DNA of 4,324 bases from a virus (taxonomy: Duplodnaviria > Heunggongvirae > Uroviricota > Caudoviricetes). The translations under genes were made by a program, and so were the position numbers. The notes beneath the pieces were generated by a model, which was not told the origin of the DNA, ran no database searches, and was given only the letters and a program-made list of their open reading frames with translations. Numbering within the stretch: the first letter of the stretch is position 1; each line of letters starts with the position of its first letter. Location: positions 1 through 4,324 of IMG/VR virus record IMGVR_UViG_3300000059_000077. The stretch is one strand, 5' to 3'. Shown piece after piece: positions 1-4,324 of this stretch.

Positions 1-42
<42 letters not shown>

Positions 43-45
43 ATA

Positions 46-121
<76 letters not shown>

Positions 122-240
122 ATTGGTTCCTCAGGTGTGGATGAGATGCCCGGATACATAAATTACCCTCCCTTGGAACCGACGAAGAATAATAATGAAT
201 TCCGCTCCTGTTTCAATACAAACAATGTCAGGTATTTAAA

Positions 241-290
241 ACATAATTATACAATATTATAAAAATTAAAAAGTTCGCAAAAAAAAACTA
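241..290 (-). promoter_or_regulatory. AT-rich candidate promoter for the tRNA cluster (two TATAAT hexamers on the minus strand)
   Basis: The minus strand reads ...TTTTTATAATATTGTATAATTATG..., giving perfect TATAAT hexamers at 261-256 and 251-246, the second preceded by TG. A T9 run and TTGCGA sit upstream at 287-275. No clean 17-bp-spaced -35 was found, so this is a weak call. Confidence 0.3.
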
Positions 291-1334
291 ACTATTGTTT
301 CTTATTTCATCAAACGTTTGATTAAACCTGTCCGTTTCCAGCTCTACACCAATAGCTCTACGTTCCAGAGAGAGCGCAGCCTTTATAGTCGCCCCCGATC
401 CCATAAAAAAGTCTGCAACCAGTTCCCCCGGACGACTGCTGGCTGTAATTATCTGCCGCAACATATCTGCTGGCTTCTCACACGGATGTTTACCCGGATA
501 ATACTGCACAGGTTTGTGCGCCCAGACATCCGTATAAGGAACGGCAGCCGATACGGAAAAATAACGCCGCAGGGATTTGTACTCCTCCAGCAGGCTGGCA
601 TATTGTCGGTTCAGTTCGCTGTATGTGCTGACCAGCTGGTGGTGTGGCTTTTCCAGTTCACCGCGCTGATGTTTTTCTGCTGCAACACGCGCAAACAACG
701 CCTGCAGTTTTCTGTAATCAACCTCATTCGGCAACTGCCACTGACTGGCACCAAACCAGTGTGAAGCCATGTTTTTCTTTCCGGTGGCTTCCGCTATCTG
801 TTTTGATGTTATCCCCAGTGATACACGCGCATCACGAAAGTAAGAAATCAGCGGGGCCATGACGTGCTGTTTAAGCTTGCGCCCCTTTGCCGCATAGCCG
901 TCATTTTTGGGCTGGTATGGCCCCTGATAATGTTCTGCAAACAGAATGCGTTCTGTTGCCGGGAAATACGCCCGCAGGCTTTCCTTGTTGCATCCGTTCC
1001 AGCGTCCGGACGGCTTCGCCCAGATAATGTGGTTCAGCACATTAAAGCGCTCACGCATCATGATTTCGATATCAGATGCCAGGCGATGACCACAGAACAG
1101 GTAGAGACTTCCGGCAGGTTTCAGTACCCGCCAGAACTGCGCCAGACACTGGTCCAGCCATTTCAGGTAATCATCGTCGCCCTTCCACTGGTTATCCCAG
1201 CCCTCGGGCTTCACTTTAAAGTATGGCGGGTCTGTGACTATCAGATCGACAGAGTTTTCCGGTAAGGTCTGGATAAATTCCAGGCAATCAGCGTTGATTA
1301 ACTCACAACTGGATATTTTTACAGTATTAGCCAT
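288..1334 (-). CDS. DNA methyltransferase, beta-class amino-MTase (N6-adenine or N4-cytosine), orphan
   Basis: 348-aa ORF. Motif IV is LIVTDPPYF near the N-terminus and motif I is DFFMGSGAT near the C-terminus; this IV-before-I order defines beta-class amino-MTases (PF01555-type). No restriction endonuclease partner is visible in the window. Start ATG at 1334-1332 with only a weak SD (GAGAAG). Confidence 0.9.
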   Translation of the reverse strand: MANTVKISSCELINADCLEFIQTLPENSVDLIVTDPPYFKVKPEGWDNQWKGDDDYLKWLDQCLAQFWRVLKPAGSLYLFCGHRLASDIEIMMRERFNVLNHIIWAKPSGRWNGCNKESLRAYFPATERILFAEHYQGPYQPKNDGYAAKGRKLKQHVMAPLISYFRDARVSLGITSKQIAEATGKKNMASHWFGASQWQLPNEVDYRKLQALFARVAAEKHQRGELEKPHHQLVSTYSELNRQYASLLEEYKSLRRYFSVSAAVPYTDVWAHKPVQYYPGKHPCEKPADMLRQIITASSRPGELVADFFMGSGATIKAALSLERRAIGVELETDRFNQTFDEIRNNS

Positions 1335-1470
1335 AGATCAATAAGCACTTCTCTGATAGGCTCATACCGCTTTTGCGCAAAGCAGATGGGCCTGAGGTTT
1401 GCTTGTGACCCCAACGCATGAGCAGATGGCTGGCAGGTGCCGCTAACACCCACCAGCCGCCCATTACCAC

Positions 1471-1498
1471 AAATAAAAAAGCCTTCACTGCGGAAGGC
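1471..1498 (-). terminator. Candidate intrinsic terminator overlapping the stop codon of the 65-aa gene
   Basis: Minus-strand RNA GCCUUC-CGCAGU-GAAGGC forms a 6-bp stem (1498-1493 with 1486-1481) and 6-nt loop, followed by UUUUUUAUUU (1480-1471). Folded by eye; the stem is short, so strength is uncertain. Confidence 0.4.
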
Positions 1499-1682
1499 GT
1501 CTGTAACAACCGAACTGATAATCTGCCAGACCCGCCATAACAAGCTGGGTCAGTATTAACTGGCAGCGTTCACGTGAAAGGTAAGTATTCTGCGCAATTT
1601 TCCCGACGGTCGCCGGTTCGGTGACGCTTAATTCATTAAACACCACTCTGGCAGTTTCGGTCATATCCTGCTGTTTTAGCAT
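1485..1682 (-). CDS. Small (65 aa) putative winged-helix DNA-binding protein, possibly FaeA/PapI-like
   Basis: Sequence MLKQQDMTETARVVFNELSVTEPATVGKIAQNTYLSRERCQLILTQLVMAGLADYQFGCYRRLPQ. ATG at 1682 is preceded by AAGGA about 8 nt upstream. The track's TTG start at 1820 lies inside the terminator hairpin, so I reject it. The IA...LS...IL..L...G spacing resembles the FaeA/PapI regulator family as I recall it; this is a weak, unverified similarity. Confidence 0.5.
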   Translation of the reverse strand: MLKQQDMTETARVVFNELSVTEPATVGKIAQNTYLSRERCQLILTQLVMAGLADYQFGCYRRLPQ

Positions 1683-1805
1683 GTCTTTTTTCCTTTTCTG
1701 GTTAACGTGACATACCAATAGCTCTTGTCGAAAAAGCCAGCAAGCTGAAAGACCGGTATTCGCAACCATCAGCGCGTTTAACGTCCTGTACCGTTTTTCA
1801 GGCAT

Positions 1806-1829
1806 AAAAAAAACCCGCAAAAAGCGGGC
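1806..1829 (-). terminator. Strong intrinsic terminator downstream of the Q-like gene (tR'-like position)
   Basis: Minus-strand RNA CCCGC-UUUUU-GCGGG (stem from 1814-1818 and 1824-1828) is followed by a U8 run (1813-1806). It lies about 80 nt downstream of the Q stop codon. Confidence 0.8.
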
Positions 1830-1882
1830 TCTTTCAAATGTCCATGTCTGCTATTCGCCTCGCGGTACAGCTTTGCGAAGCG

Positions 1883-1911
1883 TACCGGCATTGAAGCAGT
1901 TTTTACGTCAA
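1883..1911 (-). promoter_or_regulatory. Candidate late promoter (pR'-like) overlapping the Q stop codon
   Basis: TTGACG (-35-like, 1911-1906) overlaps the Q stop TGA, and TGCTTCAAT follows downstream. No canonical 17-bp-spaced -10 was found. The placement mirrors lambda pR' sitting directly after Q, which is the main support. Confidence 0.2.
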
Positions 1912-2462
1912 AAAGCAATAACTTTTTTCTCTATACAAAAAGCCATAACCATTGGTTTGTACAAAATAAATTCTGCCACCTTTAGCCAATGCTCAATGCG
2001 TCTTTCACAGGTTCTTAAACTCCATTCCGGGTGTGCATCATTCAGCAGTTCAGCCATTTTGCGCTTAGTCATCCCCCGCCCCACATAACGCTGACTCAGG
2101 ACATTGAGCAGCCCGGGATAACCGGCCAGGGCTTCACCAATAACCCTGTCGATTATTAACGCCTCTGAATCGGTACAATGTGCCAGCCAGCTTTTTTGAT
2201 TGCCGTTGATCATATCCCGCAAAAAAGCCTCAAGTTCAGGTTTGTCCAGACCCGCTTTTTTCATCCTCCGGAGCGCCTCGTTAATTGCCGTTTTTGTCAG
2301 CTTTTTAGAGGTCAGTAATTGGTTGAACATATTTCCCGTCTTACCGTCGCCAATATACGACCAACGCCCCCACATACGCAGTTTCCCCTGAATCCAGACA
2401 CTTTCCAGCGTGGTGAGACGAAGGTGTTCTCCGCTTTTTCCTGTATTCGTTGGGTAAATCAT
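1908..2462 (-). CDS. Antitermination protein Q-like late-gene regulator (184 aa)
   Basis: Last gene of the nin-like operon, immediately followed by a promoter-like hexamer and a strong terminator. An N-terminal LRMWGRW motif resembles the WGxW motif I recall in DLP12 QuuD-type Q proteins. Start ATG at 2462 has an AAGGAAGG SD and overlaps the upstream stop as ATGA. The track's longer start at 2582 would overlap the YbcO-like gene by 120 nt. Confidence 0.55.
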   Translation of the reverse strand: MIYPTNTGKSGEHLRLTTLESVWIQGKLRMWGRWSYIGDGKTGNMFNQLLTSKKLTKTAINEALRRMKKAGLDKPELEAFLRDMINGNQKSWLAHCTDSEALIIDRVIGEALAGYPGLLNVLSQRYVGRGMTKRKMAELLNDAHPEWSLRTCERRIEHWLKVAEFILYKPMVMAFCIEKKVIAF

Positions 2463-2749
2463 AAATAACCTTCCTTTCTCCAGACTTCTTGTGTGCGAAA
2501 AACACCTTCTGCATGCATCAGGCGTAATTCTTCTTTGGTGTAATCGCTGGTTTTTACCCGCCCGTCGATTAAATCGTGGCACGAGCTACAGGCAATCGCT
2601 GCCTGCATATCGTGTGGTTTTATCGCCGTTCCACACGTTCCCGCCAGTCGGTAATGCGCCAGCACAGACGTTTCAGGATTGTGATTGCAGTATCCAGGGA
2701 TTCTGACCTGGCACATCTGGCCCCGCGCCACTTTACGTAAATTCACCAT
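2459..2749 (-). CDS. YbcO-like (DUF1364-type) Cys-rich putative nuclease/zinc-binding protein, 96 aa
   Basis: 96 aa with five cysteines (C13, C21, C39, C54, C57). Its size and position just upstream of Q match DLP12 ybcO. Its start overlaps the upstream stop (TAATG) and its stop overlaps the Q start (ATGA). Confidence 0.65.
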   Translation of the reverse strand: MVNLRKVARGQMCQVRIPGYCNHNPETSVLAHYRLAGTCGTAIKPHDMQAAIACSSCHDLIDGRVKTSDYTKEELRLMHAEGVFRTQEVWRKEGYL

Positions 2750-3348
2750 TACGCAAACTCCAGTAGCTGCGCGGCCACATTTTCGACTTGTTCCGGAGAG
2801 GAAAATTTACGGAACAGGATCCAGTTCCACAGCACATTCAGCACAGATTTATAAACCTGCTGAAACTCGGTTTCGTCCATATTCGCAAACGCGATGGATT
2901 TCGCTCGACGCCCGCGGCTACCGTCCGGATAAATATGCTCGGTGTAAAATCCGGCCTGAATGGTTACCCACTCGCGGAAAGCCTCAAACGACTTTAGCAA
3001 TGCCGTATCCCGGGTTCTGCGTGTCGCAACTGTATTCAGATATTGCTCTGCGGCTTCGCTCAGAGCTGGCGTATGTTCCCGGCCTACTGATTCACACAGG
3101 TAATCAACGAATCCTGAAACCAGTTTTCGTTCGCGAGGCGTGATCGCCCCTCCGACCGGAGTCCAGTAATCGAATCCGAGTTGCAGAAGTTTGAAAAAAC
3201 GCTTATGGAATGCGTAGTTACGAACGCGCTTAAAATCAGCGTGTATCCACTCGCCTATTTTGATTTGATGCAGAAAATCACAACTCTCCGGCGTCGCCGG
3301 GAGAAGTAAACCAGAAGAAGTTTGTTTGACCAGTTGTATATGCGCCAT
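2749..3348 (-). CDS. Phage nin-region protein of unknown function (199 aa; possibly DUF1367-like)
   Basis: Long ORF with a GGAG SD 6 nt upstream of the ATG at 3348. The track's TTG start at 3360 is less likely. The stop overlaps the next gene's start. The family assignment is from memory of a roughly 200-aa phage family and is not verified. Confidence 0.7.
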   Translation of the reverse strand: MAHIQLVKQTSSGLLLPATPESCDFLHQIKIGEWIHADFKRVRNYAFHKRFFKLLQLGFDYWTPVGGAITPRERKLVSGFVDYLCESVGREHTPALSEAAEQYLNTVATRRTRDTALLKSFEAFREWVTIQAGFYTEHIYPDGSRGRRAKSIAFANMDETEFQQVYKSVLNVLWNWILFRKFSSPEQVENVAAQLLEFA

Positions 3349-3407
3349 TGTTATCTCCAATGGCGCTGTAGGTTGCCAGTTGTTCAGGCTGGCTTACGAA
3401 TTATAAC

Positions 3408-3581
3408 TCATTCCCGAACCACCTTGAAACCGAGCCTTTCCAGGTATTCAATGAATGCCTCGATAGATAAAATCACATGATCATCAGGAATTAACGTTGT
3501 GTAGACAACTTTCCCATTCTCAACGCGCACAGCATAGAGGCCATTTTCACTAAAAATTTCACGCAATTCTTCGATTTTCAT
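3408..3581 (-). CDS. Hypothetical small protein (57 aa), absent from the ORF track
   Basis: Hand translation gives MKIEELREIFSENGLYAVRVENGKVVYTTLIPDDHVILSIEAFIEYLERLGFKVVRE. A GGAAGGA SD lies about 8 nt upstream of the ATG at 3581. Its position between hok and the nin-like genes corresponds to rem in K-12 Qin. Confidence 0.45.
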   Translation of the reverse strand: MKIEELREIFSENGLYAVRVENGKVVYTTLIPDDHVILSIEAFIEYLERLGFKVVRE

Positions 3582-3662
3582 CTTCAGAATCCTTCCAGAT
3601 AAATAGCTCTCCCCTTCTCAGGGTCCATCCCTCTTCTCCCTGCGCGCTAATTAAGTGAATCG

Positions 3663-3690
3663 ATTCTAGTCAGGCATACCAGCTAATCAA
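3663..3690 (-). promoter_or_regulatory. Candidate sigma70 promoter for the 57aa-199aa-YbcO-Q operon
   Basis: Minus strand has TTGATT (3690-3685), a 16-nt spacer, then TAGAAT (3668-3663). It lies between the hok terminator and the 57-aa ORF. Confidence 0.3.
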
Positions 3691-3730
3691 CAAACCCTGG
3701 TCGGTTAAATAGAAGGATTGGCTAAAATTT

Positions 3731-3760
3731 ATTAAAATAAAAAACCCGCCGAAGCGGGTT
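3731..3760 (-). terminator. Strong intrinsic terminator ending the hok transcript
   Basis: Minus-strand RNA AACCCGC-UUCG-GCGGGUU forms a 7-bp stem with a UUCG tetraloop, followed by UUUUAUUUUAAU. It sits 68 nt downstream of the hok stop codon. Confidence 0.8.
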
Positions 3761-3828
3761 AAGTGCGGGTGCGTTGAGGATGCCTGACACATCAGAGGTG
3801 GCGAGGGATTTCTCCCCCGCCTGGTCTC

Positions 3829-3984
3829 TTACTCCTCAGGTTCGTAAGCTGTGAAGACAGCGACCTCCGTCTGGCCGGTTCGGATTCGTACCTCGCAGAG
3901 GTCTTTCCTCGTTACCAGTGCCGTCACTATGACGGTTAAACAGATGACGATCAGGGCAATTAACATCGCCTTTTGCTGCTTCAT
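3829..3984 (-). CDS. hokD: Hok/Gef family type I toxin (51 aa), HokD/RelF-like
   Basis: Sequence MKQQKAMLIALIVICLTVIVTALVTRKDLCEVRIRTGQTEVAVFTAYEPEE. It has one N-terminal transmembrane helix and the LCEVR motif typical of Hok/Gef, and matches my recollection of K-12 HokD (RelF). An AAGGAGAAG SD lies 6 nt upstream. Confidence 0.9.
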   Translation of the reverse strand: MKQQKAMLIALIVICLTVIVTALVTRKDLCEVRIRTGQTEVAVFTAYEPEE

Positions 3985-4103
3985 AGCCTGCTTCTCCTTG
4001 CCTTTCGGCACGTAAGAGGCTAACCTACATGTGTCTAGCATGAAATTGGCCTCAGATTAATGTTAAGCGTCTTGCAGGACGCGTAATGTTAACTGGGGCT
4101 TCT

Positions 4104-4140
4104 CTATCTGCCTTTTGGTGTTCATGCCTGAGGCAGATAG
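4104..4140. repeat. Perfect 9-bp inverted repeat (CTATCTGCC / GGCAGATAG) with a 19-nt spacer, upstream of hok
   Basis: Read directly: 4104-4112 CTATCTGCC and 4132-4140 GGCAGATAG. The spacer contains the palindromic GCCTGAGGC. Confidence 0.6.
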
Positions 4141-4193
4141 CCTCAAGCACCCGCAGCAATTCTACTTAACTCTCCTTTTCCCGCAAACCGTTT

Positions 4194-4277
4194 TTATCCC
4201 CAGCGGCAAATCGAATACACCACCAGAGCCACCGCCATCGCAATTCCTACCGTGGTAAATGCCTCAGGCCAGGTCAT
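4194..4277 (-). CDS. 27-aa hydrophobic micro-protein (single predicted transmembrane segment)
   Basis: Sequence MTWPEAFTTVGIAMAVALVVYSICRWG. A near-consensus SD AGGAGGTG lies 5 nt upstream of the ATG at 4277. The start overlaps an upstream reading frame's stop as ATGA. Confidence 0.35.
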   Translation of the reverse strand: MTWPEAFTTVGIAMAVALVVYSICRWG

Positions 4278-4324
4278 CGATTCACCTCCTGCCCAATATT
4301 TTTAAGGTCATTTTCCGCATACAG
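4274..4324 (-). CDS. Possible 3' end of an ORF entering from the right edge (partial)
   Basis: The frame starting at 4324 is open for 16 codons (LYAENDLKNIGQEVNR) and ends with a TGA that overlaps the 27-aa ORF start. Too short to assess, and the other frames here are not excluded. Confidence 0.2.
   Translation of the reverse strand: MYAENDLKNIGQEVNR

Follow-up and report, generated by a model that had tools for sequence, protein, structure and literature searches.

The DNA analysed here, referred to as the window, comprises positions 1 to 4,324 (4,324 nt) of IMG/VR virus record IMGVR_UViG_3300000059_000077, which belongs to the Caudoviricetes. The window carries a gene for a 65-aa winged-helix (wH) protein and, downstream of it, a gene for a DNA adenine methyltransferase (MTase) orthologous to M.EcoGII. 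The two genes form a conserved two-gene cassette at the start of a lambdoid late operon, with a pairing that looks obligate, and the spacer between them specifies RNA helices that covary across species. The reading that we favour, tentatively and with somewhat less than even confidence, is that the wH protein serves as a dedicated nucleic-acid-binding gatekeeper of MTase production, at the DNA or the RNA level. A preliminary description had placed the 65-aa gene between a tR'-like terminator and a hairpin with a U-tract at its own stop codon; the open reading frame (ORF), the folds and the coordinates were checked, and this description is accurate. The elements of the cassette are as follows in the order of transcription.

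1806–1835, minus strand: tR'-like intrinsic terminator, CCCGC-UUUUU-GCGGG (stem 1828-1814, five GC pairs) followed by U8 (1813-1806)
1715–1743, minus strand: promoter-like block of conserved geometry, TTGCTG (1743-1738), 17-nt spacer, TATTGG (1720-1715)
1485–1682, minus strand: gene for the 65-aa wH protein (L23 of phage phiP27; PHROG 331), ATG at 1682
1471–1498, minus strand: stop-codon hairpin from a terminator scanner, GCCUUC-CGCAGU-GAAGGC (1498-1481; six pairs, four of them GC), then UUUUUUAUUU (U6AU3)
1402–1473, minus strand: late-leader hairpin RNA element of 72 nt (helices P1, P2a and P2), homologous to lambda 45,016-45,087
1336–1410, minus strand: leader domain II of the MTase mRNA, a long-range helix GGUCA-AAGC/GCUU-UGAUC that stops 3 nt short of the AUG, with two small helices inside it
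288–1334, minus strand: gene for the beta-class N6-adenine DNA MTase, M.EcoGII orthologue of 348 aa (PF01555, E 5e-42)

Conservation of the gene pair

Co-occurrence of the wH gene with PF01555 MTases had been set beforehand as a test, and the result is strongly positive. In 31 of 34 species-level loci, ranging from Escherichia to Plesiomonas, an MTase orthologue starts 134-153 nt past the wH gene (150 nt past its stop codon in the window), with identities falling to 41% for the wH protein and 58% for the MTase. The exceptions include a locus at a contig end and a locus without an MTase. The pairing extends to five distant lineages. Their wH homologues (P0171, P0148, P0176, P0180, and P0183) are only about 30% identical, but the order Q, tR', block, wH, MTase, and lysis genes is the same, behind four different Q families (PF03589, PF06530, PF06323, and DUF1133) and before different lysis cassettes. 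Among 5426 complete E. coli genomes, 1874 (~35%) carry the cassette, in up to 7 copies each.

Of 32 loci, 31 have an intact wH ORF, with a length of 62-67 aa. Its ATG and Shine-Dalgarno sequence are universal among related loci; in the window, AAGGA precedes the ATG (1682) with a spacing of 9 nt. A longer, 111-aa version of the ORF was rejected, as its TTG start lies inside the upstream terminator, the extension is not conserved, and conservation begins at the promoter-like block.

Fold and family of the winged-helix protein

AlphaFold2 on 20 homologues gave a predicted local distance difference test score (pLDDT) of 92.7 and a canonical winged-helix topology, H1-S1-H2-H3-S2-wing-S3, with structural matches to solved wH domains. 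By this model the 65-aa ORF is a genuine small winged-helix protein, and the winged-helix nature suggested in the preliminary description is borne out. Sequence profiles are less specific. Pfam gives only sub-threshold matches to TrmB, DUF7342, and DprA_WH, with TrmB (PF01978) at E 0.0092 and 16.3 bits vs a gathering threshold of 25.6 bits, and no NCBIfam model matches. The protein belongs to PHROG 331 (E 6.5e-37, residues 1-64), a family of unknown function, and databases label the gene 'hypothetical' or 'TrmB family regulator'. A literature search for accession WP_000917767 found nothing. The identity with FaeA/PapI regulators proposed earlier fails at this point: there is no PF04703 match at E <= 1, and a PDB search with the family profile retrieves neither PapI nor FaeA at E <= 10.

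When 1.84 billion cluster representatives were searched exhaustively with the profile, only 85 clusters emerged, nearly all of small proteins; two large proteins among them are marginal matches in repeat proteins, and none is a wH-MTase fusion. The wH protein is a bare 65-aa domain in a closed family, unlike TrmB-, ArsR-, or MarR-type regulators, and has no dimerisation or ligand domain. Two parts are invariant across the family, namely the disordered N-terminal MLKQxDMT and the helix 3 motif RCQLILTQL-x-MAGL. H1, H2, and the wing are free to vary; in the Morganellaceae proteins the wing has even lost its basic residues. A chromosomal homologue of 70 aa (P0177; L117-L119, 3001-3213) keeps RCQLILTQL, and its neighbours are MlaE/MlaD-type transporter and DUF1398 genes. 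A restriction-modification controller (C) protein was considered and rejected, as the fold is winged helix and not Xre, and neither the window nor the related loci have a restriction endonuclease gene.

Identity of the methyltransferase

The MTase is 85% identical over its full length (347 residues) to M.EcoGII, the sequence of which was taken from the supplement of PMC11551740, and likewise to the MTase of phage 1720a-02. Its translation contains the N-terminal DPPY motif (TDPPYF, residues 34-39) and the C-terminal FxGxG motif (FFMGSG, 309-314). It thus shares with M.EcoGII and M.EcoGI of E. coli O104:H4 the beta-class order DPPY...FxGxG and the location in a prophage.

According to the available part of its publication (PMC5778455), M.EcoGII methylates adenine in any context and accepts RNA as a substrate, is fully active alone both in vitro and in vivo, is harmful when constitutively expressed, and is silent in the lysogen. 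That part describes the enzyme by itself, with no mention of the upstream wH gene or the leader RNA. The identity of 85% suggests that the window MTase would also methylate independently of context. The preliminary description had pictured an epigenetic switch formed by the small protein and the MTase. With an MTase so close to a context-independent enzyme that is silent in lysogens, this idea loses its basis; a site-specific switch is implausible because methylation states at particular sites cannot be kept up by a non-specific enzyme such as M.EcoGII.

Position in the late operon

Every gene in the window lies on the minus strand, and the order along transcription is hok/sok, DUF1367, YbcO, Q-type antiterminator, wH region, PF01555 MTase, and tRNA-Thr. 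The following features place the cassette.

1908–2462, minus strand: Q-type antiterminator gene (DUF1133 / Phage_antitermQ; Pfam PF06576 E 1.3e-104 and PF06530 E 2.9e-07; PHROG 753, anti-termination protein Q-like)
1890–1917, minus strand: putative pR'-like promoter, TTGCTT-16-TTCAAT, with a start near 1882, read from the sequence
46–121, minus strand: tRNA-Thr (UGU), the next gene of the late transcript (ARAGORN; Rfam tRNA, 69.8 bits)

The closest annotated relatives are the Shiga toxin (Stx) 2e phage phiP27 and an E. coli prophage (TUM9812). In phiP27, the small gene (L23) and the MTase gene (L24) are followed by tRNAs, stx2e, and lysis genes; in the TUM9812 prophage, the wH and MTase genes are followed by tRNA-Thr, tRNA-Gly, and holin genes. 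Because of these annotated neighbours, the window is the start of a lambdoid late operon.

In lambdoid Q antitermination, the region beyond Q, pR', and tR' is read by a terminator-resistant polymerase. Q, the pR'-like promoter, and tR' all precede the wH gene, and the tRNA and lysis genes follow it. As the wH gene lies between tR' and the lysis genes, Q-modified, terminator-resistant RNA polymerase should transcribe it. The two terminators had been thought to isolate the gene from the Q-controlled late transcript. This part of the preliminary description is contradicted by the position of the gene downstream of Q, pR', and tR', and by the homology of the spacer to the lambda late leader. The lambda late leader (pR', 6S RNA, tR', tandem terminators, and the region before S) has the same position downstream of Q, but it contains no genes there, whereas the window has the wH gene upstream and the MTase gene downstream of the shared element, together with an extra MTase-specific RNA domain.

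The ~77 nt from the pR'-like promoter to tR' (1808-1881, minus strand) give a weak Rfam isrK match, at 19.8 bits vs a gathering score of 50, and the position of the promoter agrees with the 5' end of this match. In size and position the short RNA is similar to the Hfq-binding StxS, IsrK, and lambda 6S RNA. Mosaic junctions sit in hairpins: homology to phiP27 and Stx phages ends at ~1818, in the tR' loop.

Elements around the winged-helix gene

The 46-nt fold of the tR'-like terminator has a free energy of -17.5 kcal/mol (z = -4.3), and one of 200 shuffled sequences is as stable. A consensus terminator scanner did not list this site. A GC-rich hairpin with a U-run occurs at the equivalent place in nearly all related loci, with non-homologous sequences.

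The promoter-like block, in the form TTGCTG-17-TAYNTG, lies upstream of every phage wH gene examined, including the ~30%-identical homologues. Its spacer is fixed in length (17 nt) and variable in sequence in all lineages, and TAYNTG is embedded in a longer conserved CAGAGTTAYNTGTRTG, located ~25-35 nt ahead of the Shine-Dalgarno sequence. In geometry the block is like a sigma-70 promoter whose -10 element is defective, from which we infer a possible promoter activity. A by-eye motif check found no fit to sigma-54, sigma-32, CRP, LexA, IHF, or CII-type motifs, and RNAalifold found no consensus RNA structure in the block or the 5' region of the wH gene. The block was also considered as an operator of the wH protein; this is disfavoured, as the block is conserved where the recognition-helix residues change.

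Within the wH gene, codons 6-7 (1667-1662, minus strand), GAT ATG for Asp6-Met7, are frozen as nucleotides, with GAT in 28 of 28 and never GAC, and the Lys3 codon is always AAA. The frozen first codons hint at an RNA-level constraint or an internal start.

The wH stop codon UGA (1487-1485) lies inside the 3' arm of the stop-codon hairpin. By itself this hairpin is weak (-7.5 kcal/mol; z = -1.5 in its 49-nt context), and the scanner lists 5 terminator-like sites in the window vs 4.7 expected, so that the pattern alone is not above chance. The hairpin is supported because it is conserved with different arm sequences in Enterobacteriaceae (GCCUCC/GGGGGC, GCUGCC/GGCAGU, and CUCCGC/GCGGAG). The E. 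coli, E. albertii, and Enterobacter types alone have a good U-tract (7-8 U of 9); that of the Salmonella, Klebsiella, and Citrobacter types is poor, and Proteus and Providencia (Morganellaceae) lack the hairpin. The second site would be a lineage-dependent terminator at best. Of the insulated unit proposed in the preliminary description, the layout stands, as the gene with its block and hairpin does look like a promoter, gene, and terminator hairpin in a row; the second insulating site, being weak and confined to some lineages, does not stand in general.

Structured leader RNA of the methyltransferase gene

The 150-nt spacer between the wH and MTase genes is highly conserved and contains two overlapping RNA domains. 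The first is the 72-nt hairpin element, composed of P1 (UUUGUGG/UCACAAG, 1467-1473 with 1402-1408), P2a (AUGGGC/GCUCAU), and P2 (10-13 bp), the arms of which occur in at least eight different complementary versions. A covariance model of the element (R1) scores 78.6 bits on it (E 2.7e-19). When 58 distinct sequences were aligned by fitting to the model, 82% of the cells were paired vs 32-48% in slid controls, and 15 pairs were changed on both sides, a result reached by 0 of 500 shuffles. G-U pairs assign the structure to the sense strand. The element is homologous to lambda NC_001416 45,016-45,087 (L242 1217-1288), between tR' and S, and is also found in P22-, HK97-, and HK620-type late leaders. 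Judged from these alignments, the wH and MTase genes flank an ancestral late-leader element. None of 4227 Rfam covariance models matches 1300-1500 at E <= 10, and the lambda-type version has no match either.

The second domain, leader domain II, is closed by the long-range helix (1400-1410 with 1336-1347). In an unfitted MAFFT alignment, pairing of this helix reaches 90%, with changes on both sides in 4 of its 10 pairs (AAGC/GCUU, GGGC/GCCC, and GG/CC). The long-range helix belongs to the minimum-free-energy fold of the window sequence (z = -3.2). P1 and the long-range helix are mutually exclusive, as they share UCA and both compete for GGUCACA. Across 28 species, the energies of the conformers differ by no more than ~5 kcal/mol in most cases and by no more than ~10 in all. 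The ~15 nt ahead of the MTase AUG are paired in most minimum-free-energy folds, and no Shine-Dalgarno sequence precedes the start codon. The alternation of P1 and the long-range helix may be a translational switch. The 5' strand of P1 begins 12 nt past the wH stop codon; given the known footprints of ribosomes, those terminating on the wH ORF could influence the choice of conformer.

Several other structures and roles were considered for the spacer. An acceptor-like closing helix, AUGGGC/GCCCA, has one compensatory change in Mixta and is absent from the lambda-type version, and P2a is preferred. In helix P3 (NGCU/AGCN), which overlaps P2a and the long-range helix, N-N' takes four standard pair types. 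A coding role was rejected: a conserved AUG (AAUGGGCG) opens a 45-aa ORF in the window, but most relatives stop at codon 8 or shift frame. The lambda small RNA LPR2 is a different RNA, as its probe maps upstream of the hairpin element. As a speculation, the long imperfect duplex might be an RNase III site or a stabiliser of the mRNA.

Some further observations concern the same region. A Dam site, GATC (1336-1339, minus strand), lies within CUGAUCUAUG, 4-7 nt ahead of the MTase start, and is nearly invariant across genera; as part of the long-range helix it may be conserved at the RNA level and not for methylation. In Enterobacteriaceae, the 3' arm of P2 varies and the 5' arm is frozen. The Chi octamer GCTGGTGG (1450-1457, minus strand) is part of this invariant 5' arm (GGCUGGUGGGUG), in the sense orientation of the late genes. 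Two Chi sites occur in the window (1450-1457, minus strand; 635-642, plus strand) vs 0.16 expected, and the terminator hairpin of the distant locus L122 also carries GCTGGTGG. The viral contig L193 has two matches to the leader element (360-422 and 3346-3408), ~3 kb apart.

Proposed control of the methyltransferase

In its full form the cassette reads Q, pR', short leader RNA, tR', block, wH, structured RNA, MTase, tRNAs (in some phages with stx), and lysis genes. From this order, transcription of the cassette would depend on Q. In the lysogen, tR' would halt the constitutive pR' transcript and thereby keep the toxic MTase silent, and in the E. coli-type phages the second hairpin with its U-tract would be a further stop. 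Upon induction, Q-modified RNA polymerase would pass the terminators and transcribe wH and MTase together, so that the MTase would be made after induction and progeny DNA could be hypermethylated. In addition, the weak promoter-like block might drive a separate transcript of the wH gene only, which would end at the stop-codon hairpin. The start region of the MTase, devoid of a Shine-Dalgarno sequence, would be held in the long-range helix in competition with the upstream helix. The wH protein would act either on the control DNA of the cassette itself or on the leader RNA. The suggestion in the preliminary description that the small protein could gate expression of the MTase may hold.

A number of findings speak against a gatekeeper. 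Concerning the enzyme, M.EcoGII is active alone, and therefore a partner is not needed for catalysis; Q control by itself could explain the timing of MTase production. Concerning the DNA, the -10-like hexamer of the block ends in G and has no T at position 6, a promoter scanner did not call the block, and the block stays conserved in L122 and L123, where the recognition-helix residues R39 and Q41 differ. Concerning the RNA, the MTase AUG itself is unpaired in the consensus fold, and some lambda-type leaders have the hairpin element before a holin gene with neither wH nor MTase; therefore the element is not a wH-specific target. Concerning the protein, one prophage (L245) has an intact wH gene without an MTase, and the chromosomal homologue P0177 is intact and lacks both the MTase and the promoter-like block. 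Conservation in the wH protein is strongest in the disordered N-terminal tail and RCQLILTQL, a pattern that would suit a protein-protein interface equally well.

A combined claim can be stated, that the wH protein and the two-state leader are a dedicated control device or else that the wH protein is a specificity or inhibitory partner of M.EcoGII-type enzymes. We regard this claim as doubtful, though worth stating. As a control device, the wH protein would flip the leader between P1 and the start-proximal helix and thereby license MTase translation only on late transcripts.

Alternative roles of the winged-helix protein

The main rival to a gatekeeper is an accessory or specificity subunit, whereby the wH protein would bind the MTase and direct or restrict it to a substrate, such as phage DNA as opposed to host DNA or RNA. 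We consider this unlikely but the most serious of the alternatives. It has a precedent in PNB-2 of the Stx phage PA8, which forms a 1:1 holoenzyme with an MT-A70 MTase and switches its substrate to 16S rRNA (PMC10810198). As in the window, PNB-2 and M.EcoPA8orf6770P are specified by a small predicted winged helix-turn-helix gene directly upstream of a prophage adenine MTase gene, in phages of Shiga toxin-producing E. coli. PA8 was used for this comparison, as the left end of 933W has no MT-A70/PNB-2 locus. A subunit would agree with the very tight synteny across deep divergence and with the concentration of conservation in the disordered tail and one helix, as opposed to the freely varying H1, H2, and wing. 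In the chromosomal homologue P0177, which has no MTase beside it, the tail is degraded (MFNEQGMT). The activity of M.EcoGII on RNA, described in the available part of PMC5778455, fits as well.

On the other hand, the resemblance to PA8 does not extend to the sequences or the gene arrangement. PNB-2 has 143 aa and no detectable similarity to the wH protein (BLASTP E 0.53 over 7 residues), and the PA8 MTase is an MT-A70 enzyme of 208 aa in the early-left region, whereas the window MTase is a beta-class PF01555 enzyme of 348 aa in the late operon. The PA8 genes overlap by 4 nt, whereas the wH and MTase genes are separated by the 134-153 nt of structured RNA, and a long structured spacer speaks against stoichiometric co-production. 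In E. coli a terminator-like site moreover lies in the spacer, and a promoter-like block of its own precedes the wH gene. M.EcoGII does not require a partner. The MTases that accompany wH types sharing only ~54% identity fall in nearly the same clade, at 73-79% identity to the MTase of the window, which gives no sign of co-evolution. The 85 family clusters hold no fusion of the two proteins.

A second possibility is a subtype of the gatekeeper, in which the wH protein would shift the leader conformers and switch MTase translation on or off in the manner of Com and Mom of phage Mu. In Mu, a toxic DNA-modification gene is immediately preceded by the gene of a small nucleic-acid-binding protein of ~62-65 aa; Com unlocks translation of mom, the start of which lies in a regulatory RNA structure, and expression is late. 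The conserved two-state leader, with its nearly isoenergetic conformers and covariation in both pairings, and the lack of a Shine-Dalgarno sequence before the MTase would suit such control. The analogy is limited by differences from Mu: Com is a zinc finger and its gene overlaps mom, whereas the window has a winged helix for which binding is only proposed, a 150-nt spacer, and an S-adenosylmethionine-dependent methyltransferase. The occurrence of the hairpin element in wH-less lambda-type leaders and the unpaired MTase AUG argue against it, and the distant cassettes L120-L122 have a spacer of only 72 nt, with a plain terminator and a normal Shine-Dalgarno sequence. We take this subtype to be improbable.

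About equally slim is the chance that the wH gene is an independent moron, that is, a DNA-binding protein expressed in the lysogen with an unrelated host or phage target, which merely shares the late-leader insertion hot-spot with the MTase gene. The block, gene, and hairpin architecture, the intact wH copies without an MTase, and the mosaic junctions that flank the wH gene on either side, inside hairpins, are in its favour. Yet the pairing survives to ~30% identity, behind four Q families and before several lysis cassettes. In an EDL933 prophage (L244 3400-3600), moreover, homology stops inside P2, an AraC-type gene is in the place of the MTase, and the wH gene is frameshifted.

Least probable by a wide margin is a FaeA/PapI-like regulator that would join Lrp in operating a methylation-sensitive switch, with the neighbouring MTase setting the switch. 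This reading has in its favour only the generic small winged-helix fold and the nearly invariant GATC before the MTase start, and is opposed by the negative profile searches, by the orthology of the MTase to a context-independent enzyme silent in lysogens, and by a location in a phage late operon between Q and MTase and not in a fimbrial-type switch region.

Other features of the window

The first locus along transcription is the following.

Minus strand: hok/sok locus (Pfam HOK_GEF E 1.2e-23; Rfam sok, 110.7 bits)

Directly past hok, at 3739-3820 (minus strand), there is a second sub-threshold isrK-like match, stronger than that near tR' (30.5 bits, E 7e-4), which ends at a terminator (3760-3743). 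It is possibly a small RNA or the 3' end of the hok mRNA. Between the hok locus and the DUF1367 gene, a 57-aa ORF (3408-3581, minus strand) has a match to PHROG 340 (function unknown, E 1e-18) and none of significance in Pfam.

Implications

M.EcoGII-type enzymes are presumed to be anti-restriction weapons of lambdoid and Stx phages and are standard reagents for chromatin and RNA footprinting. A literature search found no paper linking a wH or TrmB-like protein to these enzymes, and none describing the leader RNA. By analogy, the cassette may belong with other systems in which a small nucleic-acid-binding partner accompanies a phage DNA-modification enzyme, such as Com-Mom, C protein and restriction-modification, and PNB-2 and MT-A70. 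The 72-nt hairpin element, which is not in Rfam, is common to lambda, P22-like, and HK97-like leaders. In Stx phages the cassette is located between Q and stx2, and therefore its terminators and leader RNA are on the late-transcription path to the toxin genes.

If the wH protein does gate or redirect the enzyme, this would explain how a context-independent, self-toxic MTase is carried safely by ~35% of E. coli genomes, and it would provide a natural regulator or specificity factor for a tool enzyme. It would also be the second example, after PNB-2, of a small winged-helix partner of a prophage MTase. Whether as a leader switch or as a specificity or inhibitory partner, the wH protein would then represent a new class of regulatory partner for M.EcoGII-type enzymes.

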